Origin: an uncultured Candidatus Saccharibacteria bacterium
GTDB taxonomy: Bacteria > Patescibacteriota > Minisyncoccia > Minisyncoccales > CAZJYT01
DNA: 64,000 nt
Direction of reading: 5' to 3'
Assembly (NCBI GenBank): GCA_964552375.1
Contig: CAZKFX010000001.1
Span: 3,929-67,928, forward strand
Part shown: piece after piece, positions 2,245-56,775 of the stretch
Layout of the letters: each line of letters opens with the position of its first letter
Position numbering within the stretch: position 1 is the first letter of the stretch
The notes under the pieces: model-generated
What the model saw: the letters and a program-made list of their open reading frames with translations, nothing else
What the model was told of the DNA's origin: nothing
The model's database searches: none
Translations under genes and position numbers: made by a program

Positions 2245-2634
2245 ATGAGAAAATATACGCCAGAAGATGCCTGGAGAGCTTATGAACAATTGCCCCAAGA
2301 GATAAAGAAAGTAATTTTTTCGGTAGATACCTCCGAGACAATTGAAAAAATTTGTGTTAGAAATAATATAAAAAGAGAAAAAAGCTCTTTGTTAGCAGAA
2401 CAAATAGGATATGTCTTGTTGGGGCTTTTTCCACCAGAGGAATTTAAAGAATGGCTTTATGAAGAATTTGGAAAAGAAAAGGGAAAGTTAATTTCACATG
2501 ATATTTTTAGGTTTATTTTTTTCCCGATAAAAAATGAACTAGAGGAAATTTATAAAACAGAAGTAATTAGTTTGCCAAAAGCTAAAATTTCTCCTCCCCC
2601 AAAAAGAGATATTTATAGAGAACCGATAGAATAA
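2245..2634 (+). CDS. Hypothetical protein
   Basis: Intact ORF in operon context upstream of T4SS-like genes; no recognisable motif. Confidence 0.3.
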   Translation: MRKYTPEDAWRAYEQLPQEIKKVIFSVDTSETIEKICVRNNIKREKSSLLAEQIGYVLLGLFPPEEFKEWLYEEFGKEKGKLISHDIFRFIFFPIKNELEEIYKTEVISLPKAKISPPPKRDIYREPIE

Positions 2635-2636
2635 AA

Positions 2637-3053
2637 ATGCCCTTTATTGTTCCTAAGTTTATTGAAAAAGAAGCAAAAATTGTAGGTCCTTTGACTTTCA
2701 GACAATTTGGCTTTTTCCTTTTTGCGGGTGTCATTGCTTTTTTCTTGTATTTTACAATTGGCAAAAAAAATCTTCCTTTGTTTTTGATAATTATAGGACC
2801 AGTAATAGCTATAGCAATGATTTTTGCATTTGGAAAGGTAGAAGGGAGAGATTTTCCAGTTTTTTTAAAAAATTTTTTGTCCCACCAACAATCTCCAAAA
2901 ATGTTTTATTTTCAAAAAAAGACAATAGCTCCTGAAATTTTGCATTTTAAAATTAAAAAAGGAGAAGAAGAAAAAAAAGAAATGGAGCCTGCAAAAGGTT
3001 TTACAAAAACAAGTTTGCAAAAAATGTTTGTTGAAATTGAAACCAAAAAATAG
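2637..3053 (+). CDS. VirB3/PrgI-like small two-TM protein (T4SS inner-membrane component candidate)
   Basis: N-terminal ...KIVGPLTFRQFGFFLFAGVIAFFLYF.. plus a second TM helix; sits immediately upstream of the VirB4 homologue, as in Gram-positive type-IV systems. Confidence 0.45.
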   Translation: MPFIVPKFIEKEAKIVGPLTFRQFGFFLFAGVIAFFLYFTIGKKNLPLFLIIIGPVIAIAMIFAFGKVEGRDFPVFLKNFLSHQQSPKMFYFQKKTIAPEILHFKIKKGEEEKKEMEPAKGFTKTSLQKMFVEIETKK

Positions 3054-3059
3054 CATTTT

Positions 3060-3689
3060 ATGGCAAAAGCTCCCAGTCAGCAATTTTTAGAGATAAAACA
3101 AATTAGAGATGGAGTGATGATATTGAAAGACGGAAGTTTAAGAAAGATTTTGGCTGTTTCTTCTTTAAATTTGGCAGTGAAGTCTAAAGAAGAACAAGAA
3201 GCCATTTTTTATCAATTTCAAAATTTCTTAAATTCTTTAGATTTTTTCTGTCAAATAATTGTTCAATCTCAAAGATTAAATATTACAGGATATCTAGAAG
3301 AATTAGAAAAATTAGAACAAAAACAACCAAATGAACTTTTAAAATTCCAAACTAGAAATTATCGCCAGTTTATCCAAAAATTAGTAGCTACAGGAACGAT
3401 TATGAATAAAAATTTCTTTTTGGTAGTTCCCTTTTATATGTCAGAACTTAAAGAAGTAATTCCCTCAAAAAAGGCAGGCAAAGGAGAGATGGCAGAACTT
3501 AAATTTCAATTGGCAAAAAATCAACTTGAACAAAGAGCTGAATTTTTAATATTAGGTTTAAGGAGGTGTGGTTTAAATGCAGCTCCCCTAAATAGTGAGC
3601 AATTAATTGAGCTTTTGTGGAATTTTTATCATCCAAAAGAAGCAGAAATGGGATATTATCCTTCTATTCCTTCTGAAATAATAAAATAA
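3060..3689 (+). CDS. VirB4/TraC-family protein, N-terminal domain (separate ORF)
   Basis: IRDGVMILKDGSLRKILAVSSLNLAVKSKEEQEAIFYQFQNFLNSL resembles the N-terminal region of PrgJ/TcpF/VirB4 proteins; ends TAA at 3687-3689, 1 nt before the ATG of the ATPase ORF. Confidence 0.5.
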   Translation: MAKAPSQQFLEIKQIRDGVMILKDGSLRKILAVSSLNLAVKSKEEQEAIFYQFQNFLNSLDFFCQIIVQSQRLNITGYLEELEKLEQKQPNELLKFQTRNYRQFIQKLVATGTIMNKNFFLVVPFYMSELKEVIPSKKAGKGEMAELKFQLAKNQLEQRAEFLILGLRRCGLNAAPLNSEQLIELLWNFYHPKEAEMGYYPSIPSEIIK

Positions 3690-30061: not shown

Positions 30062-30643
30062 ATGAGAGAAAAGCTTAGAATTAGAGAAAGCAGAAAAGAA
30101 AATGCAAGAGAAAACGAAAAAGCGGGGAATGAAATTGATAAGCTAAAAAACCTCTTGGGTTTATTTGAAGAAGGAAAAATTTTAAATTTAGTTCAAGAGA
30201 TTATCACAGAACAGCCAGAACTTTCCTTTTTTAAGGTAGCAGAGGAAATTCAAAAAATTACAGGAAAGTCTTCCAAGTCTGTTTACACAACACTCACATT
30301 ATTAGAAAGACAAGGCATAATACAAAAAGGAGAAAGAGAAGATAAAATAAAAATTGAAAATATTAATTGGGAAAAAGCAAGAGATTTGTGGGATGAAAGT
30401 GACCATAAAAAAATTTTAGAGTTTATTAATGAGAAAGGTAATGTTACCATAAAAGAAATTCAAGAAAATTTTAGGTTTTCTTCTTCTAAGGTTAGAAAAA
30501 TAGTGAGACAATTAAAAGAAAAAAAATTAATAAAGGTTATAAATTTTGGGATTCCTCATATAATTTGTTCTATAGATAAATTAAATGAGACTTCAAATCT
30601 TAAAGAATTATTTGAAATAAAAAACAAAAAGAAAAAACAATGA
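30062..30643 (+). CDS. K/E-rich protein with two winged-helix-like modules (paralogue of 27446 protein)
   Basis: MREKL N-terminus; wHTH-like GNVTIKEIQENFRFSSSKVRKIVRQLKEKKLIKV and KSSKSVYTTLTLLERQGIIQ. Confidence 0.4.
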   Translation: MREKLRIRESRKENARENEKAGNEIDKLKNLLGLFEEGKILNLVQEIITEQPELSFFKVAEEIQKITGKSSKSVYTTLTLLERQGIIQKGEREDKIKIENINWEKARDLWDESDHKKILEFINEKGNVTIKEIQENFRFSSSKVRKIVRQLKEKKLIKVINFGIPHIICSIDKLNETSNLKELFEIKNKKKKQ

Positions 30644-36747: not shown

Positions 36748-37851
36748 ATGGCAAAAATTACTCTTTCTCTTATTAAAGCAGATATTGGTTCTGTTGGAGG
36801 ACATCTTAAACCAAGTGAAAAATTGTTAGACGCAGTAAAAAAGTATATAAAACAAAAAGGTAAAGATTTTATAATTGATTATTATGTTGGTTTTACTGGC
36901 GATGATGTTGCTATTTTAACAACTCATAGATTAGGAAAAAGAAATCCTAAAGTTCACAAACTTTGCTGGAATGCCTTTTTAGCTGGAACCAAGGTAGCTA
37001 AATCTCAGGGATTATATGGAGCAGGACAAGATTTGTTAGTTTCTGCTTTTTCTGGAAATGTTAAGGGAATGGGGCCCCAAGTAGCTGAAATGGAATTTGA
37101 AGAAAGACCCTCAGAACCATTTTTAATATTCTGCGCTGATAAAACCGAACCCGGAGCCTTTAATTTACCTGTTTATTTAGCTTTTACAGATCCGATGCAT
37201 TGTGCTGGTTTGATTTTATCTCCAAATTTAAAAAAGGGATTTAAATTTGTGATTATGGATGTTAGCTATACTAAAGGAGACAGAATAATTGAATTGGTAA
37301 GCCCAGAAGAAATTTATGATATTGCTTGTTTGTTAAGAGATACGGGGAGATTTGTAATTGAATCTGTTTGGTCAAGAGCAACTGGAGAGCAAGCTGTAAT
37401 AGCAAGCACTACTAGATTGCACAATATTGCTGGAAAATATGTAGGAAAAGACGATCCGGTAATGATTGTAAGAACTCAAAAAGATTTTCCAGCTACTGGT
37501 GAAATTCTTTCTCCATATACAATTGGGCATTTTGTTGCTGGGTTTATGAGAGGATCTCACAATGGACCATTAATGCCAGTAAAGAAGAATTCCCATATTT
37601 CTTTTTTTGATGGTCCTCCAGTGGTTTCTTGTTTGGCTTTTTCTGTAAAAAATGGAAAATTGACAGAACCAGTAGATTGTTTTGACCACCCCTATTGGGA
37701 TTGGGTAAGAGATAGAATTTCTCAAAAAGCTCAAGAAATTAGAAGACAGGGATTTTTTGGCAATGCCATGCTTCCAATGTCAGAATTAGAATATACTGGA
37801 GTAATGGAAAGCTTAAAAAAATTAGAAAAGAAATTCTTCATTAGAAAATAA
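36748..37851 (+). CDS. fbp: Archaeal-type bifunctional fructose-1,6-bisphosphate aldolase/phosphatase (FBPase class V)
   Basis: N-terminal MAKITLSLIKADIGSVGGH matches the class V IKADIGS..GH start; about 367 aa. Confidence 0.75.
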   Translation: MAKITLSLIKADIGSVGGHLKPSEKLLDAVKKYIKQKGKDFIIDYYVGFTGDDVAILTTHRLGKRNPKVHKLCWNAFLAGTKVAKSQGLYGAGQDLLVSAFSGNVKGMGPQVAEMEFEERPSEPFLIFCADKTEPGAFNLPVYLAFTDPMHCAGLILSPNLKKGFKFVIMDVSYTKGDRIIELVSPEEIYDIACLLRDTGRFVIESVWSRATGEQAVIASTTRLHNIAGKYVGKDDPVMIVRTQKDFPATGEILSPYTIGHFVAGFMRGSHNGPLMPVKKNSHISFFDGPPVVSCLAFSVKNGKLTEPVDCFDHPYWDWVRDRISQKAQEIRRQGFFGNAMLPMSELEYTGVMESLKKLEKKFFIRK

Positions 37852-42292: not shown

Positions 42293-43021
42293 TTATAAAT
42301 TAGCTTTTTGAAGAGATTTAATTATTTTATCTAAGTCTCCTTCTAAAACATCTTCTAAATTGTGCCAGCTTTTTTTTATTCTATGGTCAGTAATTCTGTT
42401 TTGGGGGAAATTATAAGTTCTAATTTTTTCAGCCCTTTCTGAAGAACCTATTTGACTTTTTCTCTGTGTTTGAATTTTTTCTAATTCTTCCCTTTTTTGT
42501 TTTTCTAATAATTTAGCCTCCAAAATAGATAGAGCATTTTCTTTGTTTTGAAACAAACTTCTTTCTGTTTGAGAAGTTACTACTATTCCTGTAGGTAAAT
42601 GGGTAATTCTTATAGCGGTCATTCTTTTGTTTACATATTGGCCTCCAGGCCCTGAGGCTTTATAAGTTTCAATTTTTAATTCATTAGGATTAATTTTAAT
42701 TTCTGCTTTTTTTGGTTTTGGTAAAACAACTACCGAAGCAGTAGAAGTATGAATTCTTCCTGATTTTTCTGTAATAGGAATTCTTTGGACTCTATGGACT
42801 CCTCCTTCATATTTTAGCTGTGAAAAAGCATTTTCTCCTTCAACCTCAAAAACAATTTTTTTAATTCCATTCAAATCACTATAGTGACAATCTAAGACTT
42901 TTAGTTTCCAGTTTTTCTTTTGACAAAATTTAGAGTACATTCTAAAAAGATCTCTTGCAAACAGAGAAGCTTCCTCTCCACCGGCCCCCGCTCTTATTTC
43001 TAAAATTACTTTTTCTTTCAT
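42293..43021 (-). CDS. prfA: Peptide chain release factor, RF1-type (PxT motif), lacking N-terminal domain 1
   Basis: GGQ motif [10 protein letters not shown]; codon-recognition PIT tripeptide in [17 protein letters not shown]; starts at the position equivalent to about residue 113 of E. coli RF1; start overlaps the rpmE stop (ATGA). Confidence 0.75.
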
Positions 43022-43239
43022 TTCTCTCTGAGTTTTTTTGATTTGGCTAATTTTTGCTTAAATTTTTCTACTCTTCCCATCGTATCTACAATTTTTTCTT
43101 TTCCAGTATAAAAAGGATGGCAAGCAGAACAAATTTCTACCTTAATAAATTCTTTTGTAGAACCCACAAAAAAAGTATTTCCACACGCACATTCTACCTT
43201 AGCCTTTGGATAATATTTTGGATGAATTCCCTTTTTCAT
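43018..43239 (-). CDS. rpmE: 50S ribosomal protein L31
   Basis: [10 protein letters not shown] ... CACGN ... [10 protein letters not shown]. Confidence 0.9.
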
Positions 43240-43303
43240 ATATTTAAATTTATATAGCTTTTTTCTTGAAAAATCAAGTTTTATATGTTAAAAGAAAATA
43301 TTT

Positions 43304-44014
43304 ATGATGACAGAAATGGAAACCTTAGATTTTAAATTGGAAATAAATGAGATGGCCAAAGCAGGTCTTCATTTTGGCCATTCGGTTTCCAAGGTTCATC
43401 CCAAAATGTTGCCTTATTTGGCTGGAGTAAGAAATGCCATTCATATTATTGATTTAGAAAAAACAAAGGAAAAACTTGAAGAGGCTTTAAAATTTATTTA
43501 TCAATTAGTAAAAGAAAATAAAATTATTCTTTTTGTGGGCACTAAAATTCAAGTTAGAGATTTAGTTAAAGAAATAGCTTTAGCTACTGGTTTTCCTTAT
43601 GTAAATCAAAGATGGTTAGGGGGCACTTTTACAAATTTTGATGTTATAAGAAAAAGAGTGGAATATATGAAAGAGTTGGAGTTAAAATTAAAAGATCCAC
43701 AGATAAGATCAAAATATACAAAAAAAGAAATAAATTTGTTAAAAGAAAAATTAGAAAAACTAAAATTAAAATTTGATGGAATAAGAAATTTAGAAAGAAT
43801 TCCCGATGCTATTTTTGTGATAGATATGGTAAGAGATTATTTAGCAATAAAAGAAGCAAGAAAAAAAGGAGTTAAAGTTGTAGCCATTTCAGATAGTAAT
43901 TCAAATCCAACCTTGGCTGATTATTTCATTCCTGCTAATGATGATGCTATTTTTTCGGTAAAATATATTTTAGATAAAGTAAAAGAAGCAATATTGAAAG
44001 CAAAAGGAAAATAA
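43304..44014 (+). CDS. rpsB: 30S ribosomal protein S2
   Basis: AGLHFGHSVSKVHPKMLPYLAGVRNAIHIIDLEKT. Confidence 0.9.
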   Translation: MMTEMETLDFKLEINEMAKAGLHFGHSVSKVHPKMLPYLAGVRNAIHIIDLEKTKEKLEEALKFIYQLVKENKIILFVGTKIQVRDLVKEIALATGFPYVNQRWLGGTFTNFDVIRKRVEYMKELELKLKDPQIRSKYTKKEINLLKEKLEKLKLKFDGIRNLERIPDAIFVIDMVRDYLAIKEARKKGVKVVAISDSNSNPTLADYFIPANDDAIFSVKYILDKVKEAILKAKGK

Positions 44015-44020
44015 AAAATT

Positions 44021-44467
44021 ATGGTATCAATTGAGAAAATTAAAAAATTAAGAAAAGAAACCCAGCTTTCTCTTTTGGAATGTAAAAACGCTTTAATAAA
44101 AGCCAATGGTGATTTAGAAAAAGCAAAAGAAATTTTAAGAAAATGGGGCAAAGAAATAGCTGACAAAAAAAGAGAAAGAGAAACTAGAGAGGGAATAATT
44201 GAAAGCTATGTTCATGCTAACAAAAAAATTGGTGTTTTGTTAGAATTAAATTGTGAAAGTGATTTTGTTGCCAAAAATTCAGAATTCCAAAGGTTAGCCC
44301 ATGAGTTAGCTTTACAAATTGCAGCTGTTGACCCAAATGAAATTCCTTTGTTAGAACAAAACTGGATAAAAGACGAAAAAAAGAAAATAAAAGAACTAAT
44401 TGAAGAATATATTGCTAAATTGGGTGAAAATATTGTTTTGAGAAGGTTTGTAAGATATGAAATTTGA
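44021..44467 (+). CDS. tsf: Elongation factor Ts (short form)
   Basis: [40 protein letters not shown]-like N-terminus; [26 protein letters not shown]. Confidence 0.85.
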
Positions 44468-45726: not shown

Positions 45727-47595
45727 TTAAGGCGGAGGAATTATTCCTTCTCCATAATCTCCTGACATATGAGTACCCAAAAGACAAGTGTCAAAATCAA
45801 AACTTTCATATCCATCAAAGCAAGGATCACCAGGAATTCCTCCCCAGCTATTTTTTAAAATCCAATATCTTTTAACATTATTATACCCTACCAATACCAT
45901 TGCATGATTGGCACCTGGCAGACATTTGTAAATATCACACCCATCATCATCCAAACTTCCTGTGGTTCCCCCTCCAACACCAACCTTTACATACAAGGGC
46001 CCATATTTAATTAAACCATATTGAAGTTCCCCTCTGTTGTTTAAAATTTTTGGGGTGACACTATCAGTATTGGTTATTTTCCATAGCTCAATTGGACTAG
46101 CATCATCACAAGTTGCTGGACAAGGAGAATCAGTTTGCAAATAACCATAGCAATCTTCTGTTGGCACACCATTTGTCTTAATAAAATTGAAAGCACAATT
46201 TCCACCATTACAATCTCCAATAGGACAACAATCTGAAATTAAATACTGTTCAGACAAATCAGGCGTTAAAGAGCTGTCTCCTTTTTCTATTTTATATTTT
46301 GCTTCCATACTTCCTATAGTTGCAAAAGCCCAACAAGCTCCACAAGCTCCTTGATTTTTTACTGGGGTCATCCAATTTTCTCCATTTACATTTCTCCAGT
46401 CCCAAAATTGAGGAGGAATGTGAATAGTGATAGTGTCTGTAGCTACTACTCCTGAGGCGTCAGTTACCTTTAATGTAATAATATGGTCTATTACTGTTGA
46501 AGTAGCAACTCCAGTTAAATCATTTTTAACAAAACTACTAGAAGCGCCAATAACTCCATCTATATTAGAAGTCCATTCTATAGTATAAGGAAGAGTACCT
46601 CCTGTAATTAAGGCTTGAAAATTTATTGGGTCTCCTTGGGCAAAAGCAGTATCATCAGGAGGAGAGGAAATAGTCGCAGTTAAAAAAGGAGGATTAACCT
46701 TTACCTGAGCAGAAGCAACAGCTGTTTTTCCACAATTGTCAGTTACGCGCAAAAGAGGATGATAAGTGCCAGGAATATTGTAAATATAAGTGGTGATTCC
46801 AGAAATGAAGCTTTGCCAGTCAAAAATACCATCTCCTTCAAAATCCCATTCATATTTCACTATTTGACCTTGTCCTGGGGGTGGATCAAAAGAATAGGTG
46901 CTTCCATCAAAATAAACTGTTTCACCTGCTACTACAACAACACTTAGAGCAGTTGGAGAAGGATTTTTTCCTACTCTTGGTTTGGGGACAGGAGGAAGGT
47001 CTTGAATGCAATCTGTTCCTGTCCAACAATAACCTGAATCACAGGCATAACAATTTTCTCCTGCTCCACAACAAACACCTCCAGTGATATGAGAATTGGA
47101 AGGAGAGAAAGTTAGACATCCTGGTATGGCACTACAGGTTGGAGTGCAACCAGAGGAGGTTATTTTAAAATTAGCCACATTTTCTGTTTCGGTGGCAAAT
47201 CCCAAAATATCTTTTGCTTTAATATCAATATAATAATTACCAACAGGAGCACCACTTGAGTCCCAACTATTTCCATATTTTCCATCATTAGCTAAATCAT
47301 CGTTATGAGATCCATCATCATAAAGCTGAACAGTTGCTATATTTGTTTCGTCTGGATTTTGTAAAAAAGCAACAACTGAACTGACTCCAGAGATATCTGT
47401 TACTTTAGCATTAATAATAAAAGTAGCTCCTTGGTCTGCGCTTGAAGGTGAAACACTTACATCAGAAACTGTTGGATAAGGTTGATTTGCTATTTCCAAA
47501 GAAGGTTTTTGAGAAAAAGAAATTTTTATACAAAAAATTCCAAAAATGATTAAAATTAAAAATAACAAAGGAAAAAATTTACTTTTTTTCATCAT
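45727..47595 (-). CDS. Secreted multidomain papain-like (C1) cysteine peptidase with N-terminal beta-sandwich, Cys-rich and PKD-like domains
   Basis: NQGACGACWAFAT (active-site Cys), NHAMVLVGY (His), ILKNSWG (Asn); PKD-like YEWDFEGDG; signal peptide. Confidence 0.7.
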   Translation of the reverse strand: MMKKSKFFPLLFLILIIFGIFCIKISFSQKPSLEIANQPYPTVSDVSVSPSSADQGATFIINAKVTDISGVSSVVAFLQNPDETNIATVQLYDDGSHNDDLANDGKYGNSWDSSGAPVGNYYIDIKAKDILGFATETENVANFKITSSGCTPTCSAIPGCLTFSPSNSHITGGVCCGAGENCYACDSGYCWTGTDCIQDLPPVPKPRVGKNPSPTALSVVVVAGETVYFDGSTYSFDPPPGQGQIVKYEWDFEGDGIFDWQSFISGITTYIYNIPGTYHPLLRVTDNCGKTAVASAQVKVNPPFLTATISSPPDDTAFAQGDPINFQALITGGTLPYTIEWTSNIDGVIGASSSFVKNDLTGVATSTVIDHIITLKVTDASGVVATDTITIHIPPQFWDWRNVNGENWMTPVKNQGACGACWAFATIGSMEAKYKIEKGDSSLTPDLSEQYLISDCCPIGDCNGGNCAFNFIKTNGVPTEDCYGYLQTDSPCPATCDDASPIELWKITNTDSVTPKILNNRGELQYGLIKYGPLYVKVGVGGGTTGSLDDDGCDIYKCLPGANHAMVLVGYNNVKRYWILKNSWGGIPGDPCFDGYESFDFDTCLLGTHMSGDYGEGIIPPP

Positions 47596-54619: not shown

Positions 54620-55165
54620 ATGCCAAAACAAAATTTACCTCAAGAAAGAAATTGGTACGTAATCCATACTTATTCTGGCTACGAAGAGGCAGTAGCTAAG
54701 GCTCTAAAACAAAGAGTAGAAAATTTAGGTTTAAAAGATAAGATTTTTAATGTCATTGTCCCCAAAGAGAAAAAGATTAAAATCAAAAATGGAAAAAGAA
54801 AGGTGGTAGAAGAAAAAATTTATCCAGGTTATGTATTAGTAGAAATGATAGTTACTGATGAGACCTGGTATGTAGTTAGAAACACTCCCAATGTGACAGG
54901 ATTTGTAGGAGCAGGAACAACACCAATTCCTCTTTCAGAAAAAGAAATAGAGATACTCAAAAAGAGAATGAGTCAAAAAGAGCCAGAGCATAAAATTGAT
55001 GTGAAAATTGGAGAAATAGTGAGAATTGTTGATGGTCCTTTTAAAGATTTTGATGGAAAGGTTGCCGAAATTGATGAAAAAAGAGGAAAAGTTAAGGTTT
55101 TGGTTAATTTATTCGGAAGAGATACTCCAGTAGAATTAGATTGTCTTCAAATTAAAAAAATATAA
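54620..55165 (+). CDS. nusG: Transcription termination/antitermination factor NusG
   Basis: NWYVIHTYSGYE NGN domain; C-terminal KOW GEIVRIVDGPFKDFDGKV. Confidence 0.9.
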   Translation: MPKQNLPQERNWYVIHTYSGYEEAVAKALKQRVENLGLKDKIFNVIVPKEKKIKIKNGKRKVVEEKIYPGYVLVEMIVTDETWYVVRNTPNVTGFVGAGTTPIPLSEKEIEILKKRMSQKEPEHKIDVKIGEIVRIVDGPFKDFDGKVAEIDEKRGKVKVLVNLFGRDTPVELDCLQIKKI

Positions 55166-55171
55166 TTTTTT

Positions 55172-55597
55172 ATGGCAAAAAAAATCACAAAAATAATAAA
55201 ACTTCAAATTCCTGCCGGAAAAGCCACTCCCGCTCCTCCAGTAGGACCAGTTTTGGCTCCTCAGGGGATAAATGTGGGAGAGTTTTGTAAAAAGTTTAAT
55301 GATTTAACAAAAGAAAAAGCAGGATTTACCATTCCCGTAGAAATTATTATTTATGAAGACAGAAGTTACGATCTTAAACTAAAACAACCTCCTGCTTCAG
55401 AATTGATTAAAAAAGCAATAGGAATTGAAAAGGGTTCTGGTCAGCCCAATAAAAAAAAGGTAGGAAAACTTACAAAAGCTCAATTAAAAGAAATTGCTAA
55501 ACAAAAACTCCCCGATTTAAATACTGATGATATTGAAAAGGCAATGAAAATAATAGCTGGAACCGCAAAGCAAATGGGAGTGGAAATTGAAGAATAA
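55172..55597 (+). CDS. rplK: 50S ribosomal protein L11
   Basis: [29 protein letters not shown]. Confidence 0.95.
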
Positions 55598-55603
55598 AAA
55601 ATT

Positions 55604-56155
55604 ATGGTTTTGTCAGATAAAGAAATAAAAGAATATGTAAGAAAATATAAAATGATCTCTCCCTTTAAGAGCTCTTTGATTACAAAAAATAAAGTTTCTT
55701 TTGGTTTGTCTTCTTATGGATATGATTTTAGGATAGCTCAAGAATTTAAAATTTTTACCAATGTTAACAACGCAATTGTTGATCCTAAAAATTTTGATTC
55801 TCGTTCTTTTGTTGATTTTCAAGGAAAAGTTTGTATTATTCCTCCAAACTCTTTTGTTTTAGGGAAAAGTATTGAATATTTTAGAATTCCTCGGGATGTT
55901 TTGGGAATTTGTCTGGGAAAGTCAACCTATGCCCGTTGCGGAATAATTGTCAATGTTACTCCTTTAGAACCCGGATGGGAAGGTTATGTGACTGTAGAAA
56001 TTTCAAACACTAGTCCTTTACCAGCAAAAATTTATGCCAAAGAGGGTATTTGCCAAGTGATTTTTATTAAAGGAAGTAAAGAATGTGAAGTTTCTTACGG
56101 AGATAGAAAAGGAAAATATCAAAAACAAAAGGGTTTAACTTTGCCCAAAGTTTGA
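55604..56155 (+). CDS. dcd: dCTP deaminase (dUTPase-fold)
   Basis: [12 protein letters not shown]-terminus; dCTP deaminase family length; sits at the position normally taken by rplA. Confidence 0.8.
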
Positions 56156-56775
56156 AAATGAAAAAAAATAAATTTTCTGGAAGATTTATTGTTTTTGAGG
56201 GATTAGATGGTTCTGGTAAATCTACTCAAGTTAGTCTTTTAGATAAATTTTTAAGAAAGAAAACAAAAAAGGTTCACTGCACAGCAGAACCCACTCAATA
56301 TCTAATTGGAGGATTAATTAAAAGTTGGATTGCTAACGATTGGAAAAGTTCTCCCGATTGTTTGCAACTTTTATTTGCAGCAGATAGAGCCTATCATTTA
56401 GAAAAAGAAATTATCCCTTTATTAAAAAAGGGAGTGACGGTAATTTGTGATAGATATTTGTTTTCCAGTTTGGCTTATGGAAGCTTGGATTTAGATTTTG
56501 GTTGGCTTTTGAAAATTAACGAGAAATTTGTTTTACCTGACATTACTTTTTTTTTAGATGTCTCACCTGAAATTTGTATTGAGAGAATGAGAAAAGAGAG
56601 ATTTTCAATTGAGTTGTTTGAAAAAAAAGAAAAATTAGAAAAAGCAAGAGAAAATTTTCTAAAACTAAAAGAGAAATTTGATAATTTTTATATTATAAAT
56701 GGAGAAAAAAAGATTAAAGAGGTTTTTGAGAAAATAAGAGAAATTTTAGAAAGGTCTCAATTAATAAAAAATTAA
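56152..56775 (+). CDS. tmk: Thymidylate kinase
   Basis: [18 protein letters not shown]-loop, DRY motif region. Confidence 0.85.

Follow-up and report, generated by a model that had tools for sequence, protein, structure and literature searches.

RF1 reads UAA and UAG with a PxT 'tripeptide anticodon', and in the solved RF1 complexes the tip of the alpha5 helix reads U1 of the stop codon. GGQ is the catalytic motif for peptidyl-tRNA hydrolysis. Domain 1 contacts the L11 stalk region and, where present, RF3. In canonical RF1 (T. maritima 1RQ0, T. thermophilus 4V63, E. coli 5J30) this domain comprises about 105 residues. An RF1 without it has been made in the laboratory, as an engineered E. coli protein (Mora et al. 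2003, PMC1586002). According to PMC1586002 (after Mora et al. 2003 and Vestergaard et al. 2005), the truncated RF1 keeps its codon specificity, releases peptide in vitro and works in vivo, with slow growth reported; it cannot stimulate RF3, as stimulation of nucleotide exchange on that factor depends on domain 1. A reviewer in the same article comments that domain 1 seemingly matters more for RF2 than for RF1. By a reviewer comment there, E. coli RF1 is also reportedly inactive on L11-less ribosomes, which would suggest that loss of the L11-contacting domain may not be neutral.

Two groups of natural proteins also lack this domain, and in the survey of Burroughs & Aravind only PrfH and ArfB-type proteins are without the GTPase-interacting domain. 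PrfH, or RFH, combines a codon-recognition-like domain with GGQ and often overlaps its upstream gene (PMC1586002); its decoding region is divergent, it is linked to RtcB/RtcB2 and it rescues damaged ribosomes. ArfB/ICT1 has the GGQ catalytic domain without domains 2/4 and places a basic C-terminal tail in the mRNA channel. In the full-text literature, which included few subscription-journal papers, we found no report of a natural RF1 orthologue lacking domain 1, in CPR or elsewhere.

The window, by which we mean the whole 64-kb stretch of DNA analysed here, comes from an ultra-small Patescibacteria/CPR bacterium of the Parcubacteria-Paceibacteria group and contains a prfA gene from which domain 1 is missing (Table 1). 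The encoded protein has the same architecture as the engineered E. coli RF1; the deletion here is natural and fixed, under purifying selection, and recurrent, whereas the E. coli deletion was made in the laboratory. We consider it very likely that the protein is a genuine, working RF1, probably the only one in the cell, in which domains 2-4 would do everything that termination needs, without RF3.

Table 1. Features of the rpmE-prfA locus (positions in the window)
Feature	Position	Strand	Description
prfA without domain 1	42293..43021	-	242-aa RF1, domains 2, 3 and 4 only, TAA stop
Catalytic GGQ, G126-G127-Q128	42638..42646	-	codons GGA GGC CAA
PxT tripeptide, P82-I83-T84 (PIT)	42770..42778	-	codons CCT ATT ACA
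alpha5 tip, G12-A-G-G-E-E17 (GAGGEE)	42971..42988	-	aligned with the RF1 'GTGGEEA' segment
ATGA overlap	43018..43021	-	rpmE TGA and prfA ATG share 4 nt; presumed termination-reinitiation coupling site
rpmE	43018..43239	-	bL31, 73 aa, TGA stop; first gene of the rpmE-prfA pair
Divergent intergenic region, rpmE (-) / rpsB (+)	43240..43303	.	64 nt; sole place for an rpmE-prfA promoter
rpsB and tsf	43304..44467	+	conserved divergent neighbours; Pfam Ribosomal_S2, EF_TS

The protein profiles locate the missing part precisely. Pfam matches PCRF over positions 100-194 of 194 and the RF-1 domain completely (2-116 of 116), and the NCBIfam prfA profile TIGR00019 matches at 381.4 bits over positions 112-349 of 361, with positions 1-111 unmatched. 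This score lies below the curated equivalog cut-off of 423.25, so the protein is not counted as a full-length, four-domain member. The shortfall arises because a third of the model has no counterpart in the protein, and together with the unmatched 1-111 it identifies an RF1 orthologue of atypical architecture rather than a textbook member. Alignment to solved structures was gapless, with residues 3-237 equivalent to 86-320 of T. maritima RF1 and residues 5-237 to 111-344 of E. coli RF1, and identity to solved RF1s over domains 2-4 was 54-65%. The PIT tripeptide aligns with PVT/PAT of solved RF1, and the alpha5 tip sits 11 residues from the new N-terminus. An AF2 model (pLDDT 81) superposed on ribosome-bound, open RF1 with a TM-score of 0.90-0.91 and an rmsd of 2.4 Å over 241 columns. 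The window protein thus has the PxT, alpha5 tip, GGQ and predicted open fold of canonical RF1 and is wholly without its domain 1.

An earlier note on this DNA had described an RF1-type factor missing its entire N-terminal domain. The RF1 type is confirmed, as PxT and GGQ are both present and the prfA profile outscores those for prfB (TIGR00020, 254 bits), prfH and ArfB, and the absence of domain 1 is borne out by Pfam, NCBIfam and the structure alignments alike. Its estimate that the protein begins at about residue 113 of E. coli RF1 was near, although M1 corresponds to about 107 in the PDB alignment. The note had also assigned to domain 1 the interactions with the L7/L12 stalk and RF3; the RF3 contact stands, but the L11 stalk region fits better than the L7/L12 stalk. 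The ribosomal partner of domain 1, L11, is encoded intact in the window, with both of its domains. We also observed that nusG and rplK (L11) are followed there by dCTP deaminase and thymidylate kinase (54620-56775, + strand) and not by rplA-rplJ-rplL; L1 is absent from its usual place.

The absence of domain 1 and the translational link to an upstream gene, both of which PrfH has too (PMC1586002), together with the score under the prfA equivalog cut-off, would fit a paralogue specialised, like PrfH or ArfB, for rescue or an auxiliary role in a cell with a canonical full-length RF1 elsewhere. We regard this as improbable. The prfH profile TIGR03072 gives 100.3 bits against a cut-off of 166.65, and solved PrfH matches at 1e-14 to 1e-15 against 1e-95 for RF1. 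The ArfB profile NF006718 matches just 35 residues and scores 37 bits, where its cut-off is 100, and unlike ArfB the window protein has domains 2/4 complete, with the second half of PCRF and the domain-4 C-terminus both in place. No RtcB-type ligase lies upstream, where PrfH would have one, or elsewhere in the neighbourhood; prfA is preceded by rpmE. The PxT, alpha5 tip and GGQ are unchanged, in contrast to the divergent decoding region of PrfH, and the rpmE-prfA locus is orthologous to that of relatives whose full-length RF1 is up to 91% identical. Neither the window nor any of the 80 loci from related genomes (±10 kb in the relatives) contained a second RF1, and a tblastn search of the 64-kb window returned no second RF gene.

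The upstream gene was identified as rpmE by Pfam Ribosomal_L31 (1.1e-30) and NF000612 (2e-30). The junction reads ...AAA TGA / ATG AAA..., and the ATGA overlap between the L31 stop and the prfA start, which the earlier note had pointed out, is read straight from the sequence. Its conclusion that there is no room for domain 1 also holds, since an in-frame stop lies just upstream of the ATG, rpmE fills the DNA beyond it and then only 64 nt separate rpmE from rpsB. The arrangement is widely conserved. We found rpmE directly upstream of prfA in 76 of the 80 related genomes, with short and full forms alike, and ATGA or other short overlaps recur in many of them. The two genes overlap or lie within 5 nt of each other at about 35 of 48 short loci and at 13 of 28 full loci; tight spacing is common to both forms, so the coupling would be ancestral and not a consequence of the deletion. 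The overlap suggests that ribosomes that have just terminated with RF2 at the rpmE UGA probably reinitiate at the prfA ATG. A scan for promoters and terminators around the operon gave nothing above the shuffled expectation; prfA would be transcribed from the rpmE promoter. Of the window's TGA stops, about half fall in 4-nt ATGA/TTGA overlaps with the start of the following gene (for example 18166-18169, 30640-30643 and 47592-47595), and a disproportionate share of UGA, and with it of RF2 use, falls at junctions between paired genes, that of rpmE and prfA included.

The order tsf-rpsB<>rpmE-prfA is the same in the relatives L085 and L086, which have a short RF1, in L087, which has a full one, and in L088, where it is partial. 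These shared flanks show the window locus to be the orthologue of the one that carries full-length prfA in relatives, and part of the clade has a full-length RF1 in the same rpmE-prfA neighbourhood. Two further observations concern the neighbouring genes. EF-Ts (44021-44467, + strand) has 148 aa, with Pfam EF_TS matched over 1-76 of 204 and an N-terminal UBA-like part, and short EF-Ts proteins of 145-149 aa occupy the same place in L085-L088; this is apparently another trimmed translation factor. An archaeal-type fructose-1,6-bisphosphate aldolase/phosphatase (36748-37851, + strand; Pfam FBPase_3) adjoins pyrophosphatase and ftsZ/ftsA, and is conserved near the prfA locus in L085 and L087.

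The short RF1 is a lineage-wide, recurrent state in Patescibacteria and not a one-off. We collected the 120 most similar proteins from a collection of 5.8 billion sequences (67-81% identity), and 80 Patescibacteria species representatives (Parcubacteria, Paceibacterota, Nealsonbacteria and Minisyncoccales). The truncation is found in 66 of the 120 homologues and in 50 of the 80 genomes, at the same rpmE-prfA locus. The 66 short proteins are 236-269 aa long, and their first residue lies 0-22 positions ahead of the conserved 'IxEIRAG' strand; 52 are full, with 330-402 aa, and 2 are intermediate. Measured from the rpmE stop to where the core codons begin, the spacing falls into two groups, -11 to 217 nt (median about 23) in the 48 genomes without domain 1 and 254-578 nt in the 28 with it. 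At two more loci, with no detectable rpmE, RF1 is likewise short. Across all 120 homologues G12, G14, G15 and E17 of the alpha5 tip, P82 and T84 of the PxT and the GGQ are invariant, and the 58 invariant core positions include all decoding and catalytic residues. The 50%-identity cluster representatives also included the RF1-like proteins P0241, P0257, P0261, P0271, P0365 and P0366. Several of these start at about position 90 of PCRF and have C-terminal extensions, one with a PrmC_N segment and one with ABC_tran, and in a 477-aa protein among them PCRF and RF-1 stretches each occur twice. Fusion, read-through or fragmentation may account for these proteins.

It is conceivable that domain 1, a flexibly attached helical module (PMC1586002), is now encoded by a small ORF of its own at another place in the genome and associates with RF1 in trans, and the DNA inspected covers 64 kb of this genome and ±10 kb in the relatives. 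We built a domain-1 HMM from the 52 full-length clade sequences and searched with it in six frames. It detects domain 1 at every locus that possesses it, with E-values of 3.7e-8 to 8e-41, but gives no match at E<0.01 in the 64-kb window or at the 50 truncated loci, and over the window and 82 loci it found nothing outside the full-length genes. The graded partial forms (311, 309 and 289 aa) also resemble decay and not relocation. A split gene is thus, in our judgement, slightly less probable even than a specialised paralogue.

An artefact or pseudogene, be it through faulty assembly, a misplaced start or gene decay, is less probable again. All of the sequences are metagenome-derived, and gene callers do yield false short release factors, such as the short RF2 products considered below. 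However, the identical window protein occurs on four contigs and is present in NCBI, JGI, ENA and Logan; independent assemblies agree, those of ENA and Logan keep the identical rpmE-RF junction, and no alternative assembly or upstream exon restores domain 1. The in-frame stop and the rpmE-occupied upstream DNA leave no earlier start, the state recurs in 50 of 80 species, dN/dS is low (0.06-0.09) and the catalytic and decoding residues are invariant.

We compared the short and full forms and found them intermingled, with a median core identity of 71% within the short group, 71% between short and full and 72% within the full group; yet in some short-full comparisons it is as high as 91%. Neighbour-joining trees of the RF1 core require 14 Fitch state changes (minimum 10 and median 14 in 100 bootstraps), and the tree of the neighbouring S2 requires 11 (bootstrap minimum 8), where shuffled labels would be expected to give 19.6. 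Together the two trees indicate that the short state carries phylogenetic signal yet has many origins. A single ancient deletion is rejected on the 14 changes on the RF1 tree and the 11 on the S2 tree.

Partly truncated forms are also found, with 311, 289 and 309 aa (L088 1340-2436, P0069 and L070 9797-10723). A 311-aa form, P0043, is present on 8 contigs with rpmE overlapping its start, and the 289-aa P0069 retains only the last helix of domain 1. Judged from their sequences, these proteins look like intermediate stages of loss. A 319-aa RF1 (L075 6604-7560) has an N-terminal extension that the domain-1 HMM no longer recognises (E = 1.7), and it too looks like such a stage. We consider the loss recurrent because of the at least 8-10 state changes on the trees and these partly truncated forms.

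The closest pairs reveal the deletion directly. The short P0003 and full P0015 are 91.5% identical over the core, and their DNA alignment differs by a single missing block of about 375 nt, bounded by the 3' end of rpmE and the start of domain 2. The dN/dS is 0.06 for this pair; the window prfA and that of L003, the nearest relative at species level, differ with a dN of 0.12 and a dS of about 1.3. No clear signature of compensating residues was found between the short and full RF1 cores, where the largest frequency difference was 0.49, and there was no obvious compensation needed for the loss of domain 1. The use of stop codons did not change either. Among about 880 ORFs from related loci the TAG share was 14.8% with a short RF1 and 13.6% with a full one (p = 0.70), so UAG termination is still required and evidently served. 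In the window the 72 long ORFs end in TAA (47), TGA (16) and TAG (9), and Rfam returned five tRNAs only, with no suppressor tRNA. The earlier note had reasoned that UGA is a stop in this genome and that an RF2 is needed elsewhere, and the 16 TGA-ending ORFs agree with this.

RF2 in the clade is a paralogous class-I factor that shares domains 2-4 at about 38% identity, with SPF in place of PxT, and in L023 and L083 it keeps both domain 1 and the CUU UGA C +1 frameshift. On contig L023 (DAOWKS010000053.1) a truncated RF1 of 252 aa, which overlaps rpmE, occurs together with an RF2 gene that has the SPF motif, a complete domain 1 and a TAC CTT TGA C +1 frameshift site. Two other candidates for such a combination, L089 and L090, had no RF1 within 10 kb. 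No RF2 gene lies within the window although 16 of its 72 ORFs end in TGA, but the idea that the truncated factor has come to read all three stops and replaced RF2 is very improbable, given decoding motifs of the ordinary RF1 type that are identical to those of full-length relatives, the RF2 beside the truncated RF1 of L023 and the conservation in the clade of RF2 with its UGA frameshift autoregulation.

A search with domain 2 of the L023 RF2 gave 120 clade RF2 proteins, of which 81 start downstream of the AGAGG motif, most of them with 219-226 aa and beginning 'MLLRMY' or 'MYERY'. A real truncation of these short RF2 proteins was considered and rejected. In L083 domain 1 and the frameshift site are both found in the DNA ahead of the called start, with no Met in between. 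The Met-free stretch after CTT TGA C and the domain 1 encoded upstream mark the short RF2s as gene-calling artefacts. A start within 20 residues of AGAGG was seen in just two of these proteins, both short fragments, and none of the 120 has an architecture without domain 1, which makes the loss specific to RF1. Public protein sets therefore contain many falsely short RF2 entries that are a product of the programmed frameshift, among them the Patescibacteria entries from L083 (about 2570-3669) and P0139-P0233. Two individual RF2 genes also deserve mention. In the Illumina contig L090 an in-frame TAG (2073-2076, within the RF2 gene at 1495-2400) replaces a conserved Glu just after GGQYVNKR and splits RF2 into calls of 193 aa and 76 aa; this could be an error, a pseudogene or UAG read-through. 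The related, nanopore-style contig L089 has a frameshift in RF2 just before GGQ, probably an indel error.

A working model follows the preferred reading, that of a genuine RF1 working without domain 1. An in-place deletion would have taken the N-terminal helical domain of about 105 residues from prfA. Within the 30S decoding centre, UAA/UAG would be recognised through the PxT loop and alpha5 tip; domain 3 would extend its GGQ loop to the peptidyl-transferase centre for hydrolysis of the peptidyl-tRNA. With domain 1 gone, RF1 may leave the ribosome without RF3, through spontaneous subunit rotation followed by recycling by RRF/EF-G, and UGA stops would be served by the separate RF2 with its domain 1. 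Many bacteria have no RF3, which is a dispensable factor, and spontaneous subunit rotation allows RF1 and RF2 to finish termination (PMC6742477). Thermus and Thermotoga have no RF3 (PMC6742477) yet their RF1 keeps domain 1, so RF3 loss alone does not explain the deletion.

The window protein is a natural variant of a known factor and agrees with what biochemistry has established; what was not anticipated is how widespread the truncation is, how often it recurs and that it sets RF1 apart from RF2. One practical consequence is that pipelines using full-length cut-offs will rank short RF1s below threshold. The role of domain 1 is debated, with RF3 recruitment, L11 stalk docking and subunit bridging under discussion, and so far it has been approached through laboratory deletions only. 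In this large clade it has been lost naturally, and repeatedly, from the essential RF1 of over half the species sampled, while RF2 keeps it. The full, partial and absent forms, some of them 91% identical in the core, make a natural set of proteins that suits kinetic and cryo-EM comparison, and they offer a phylogenetic handle on what else changes with the loss, such as RF3, L11 or the 23S H43/44 region. We lean, by a modest margin, towards the view that in one large branch of Patescibacteria domain 1 of RF1 was deleted repeatedly, in at least 8-10 events, from a state in which it was dispensable, with RF2 retaining its own in a natural RF1/RF2 asymmetry. If this is true, it would point to a lineage-specific change, for example the absence of RF3 or an altered use of the L11 stalk and GTPase centre on the reduced CPR ribosome, and such a change would remove the need of RF1 for contact with the stalk.
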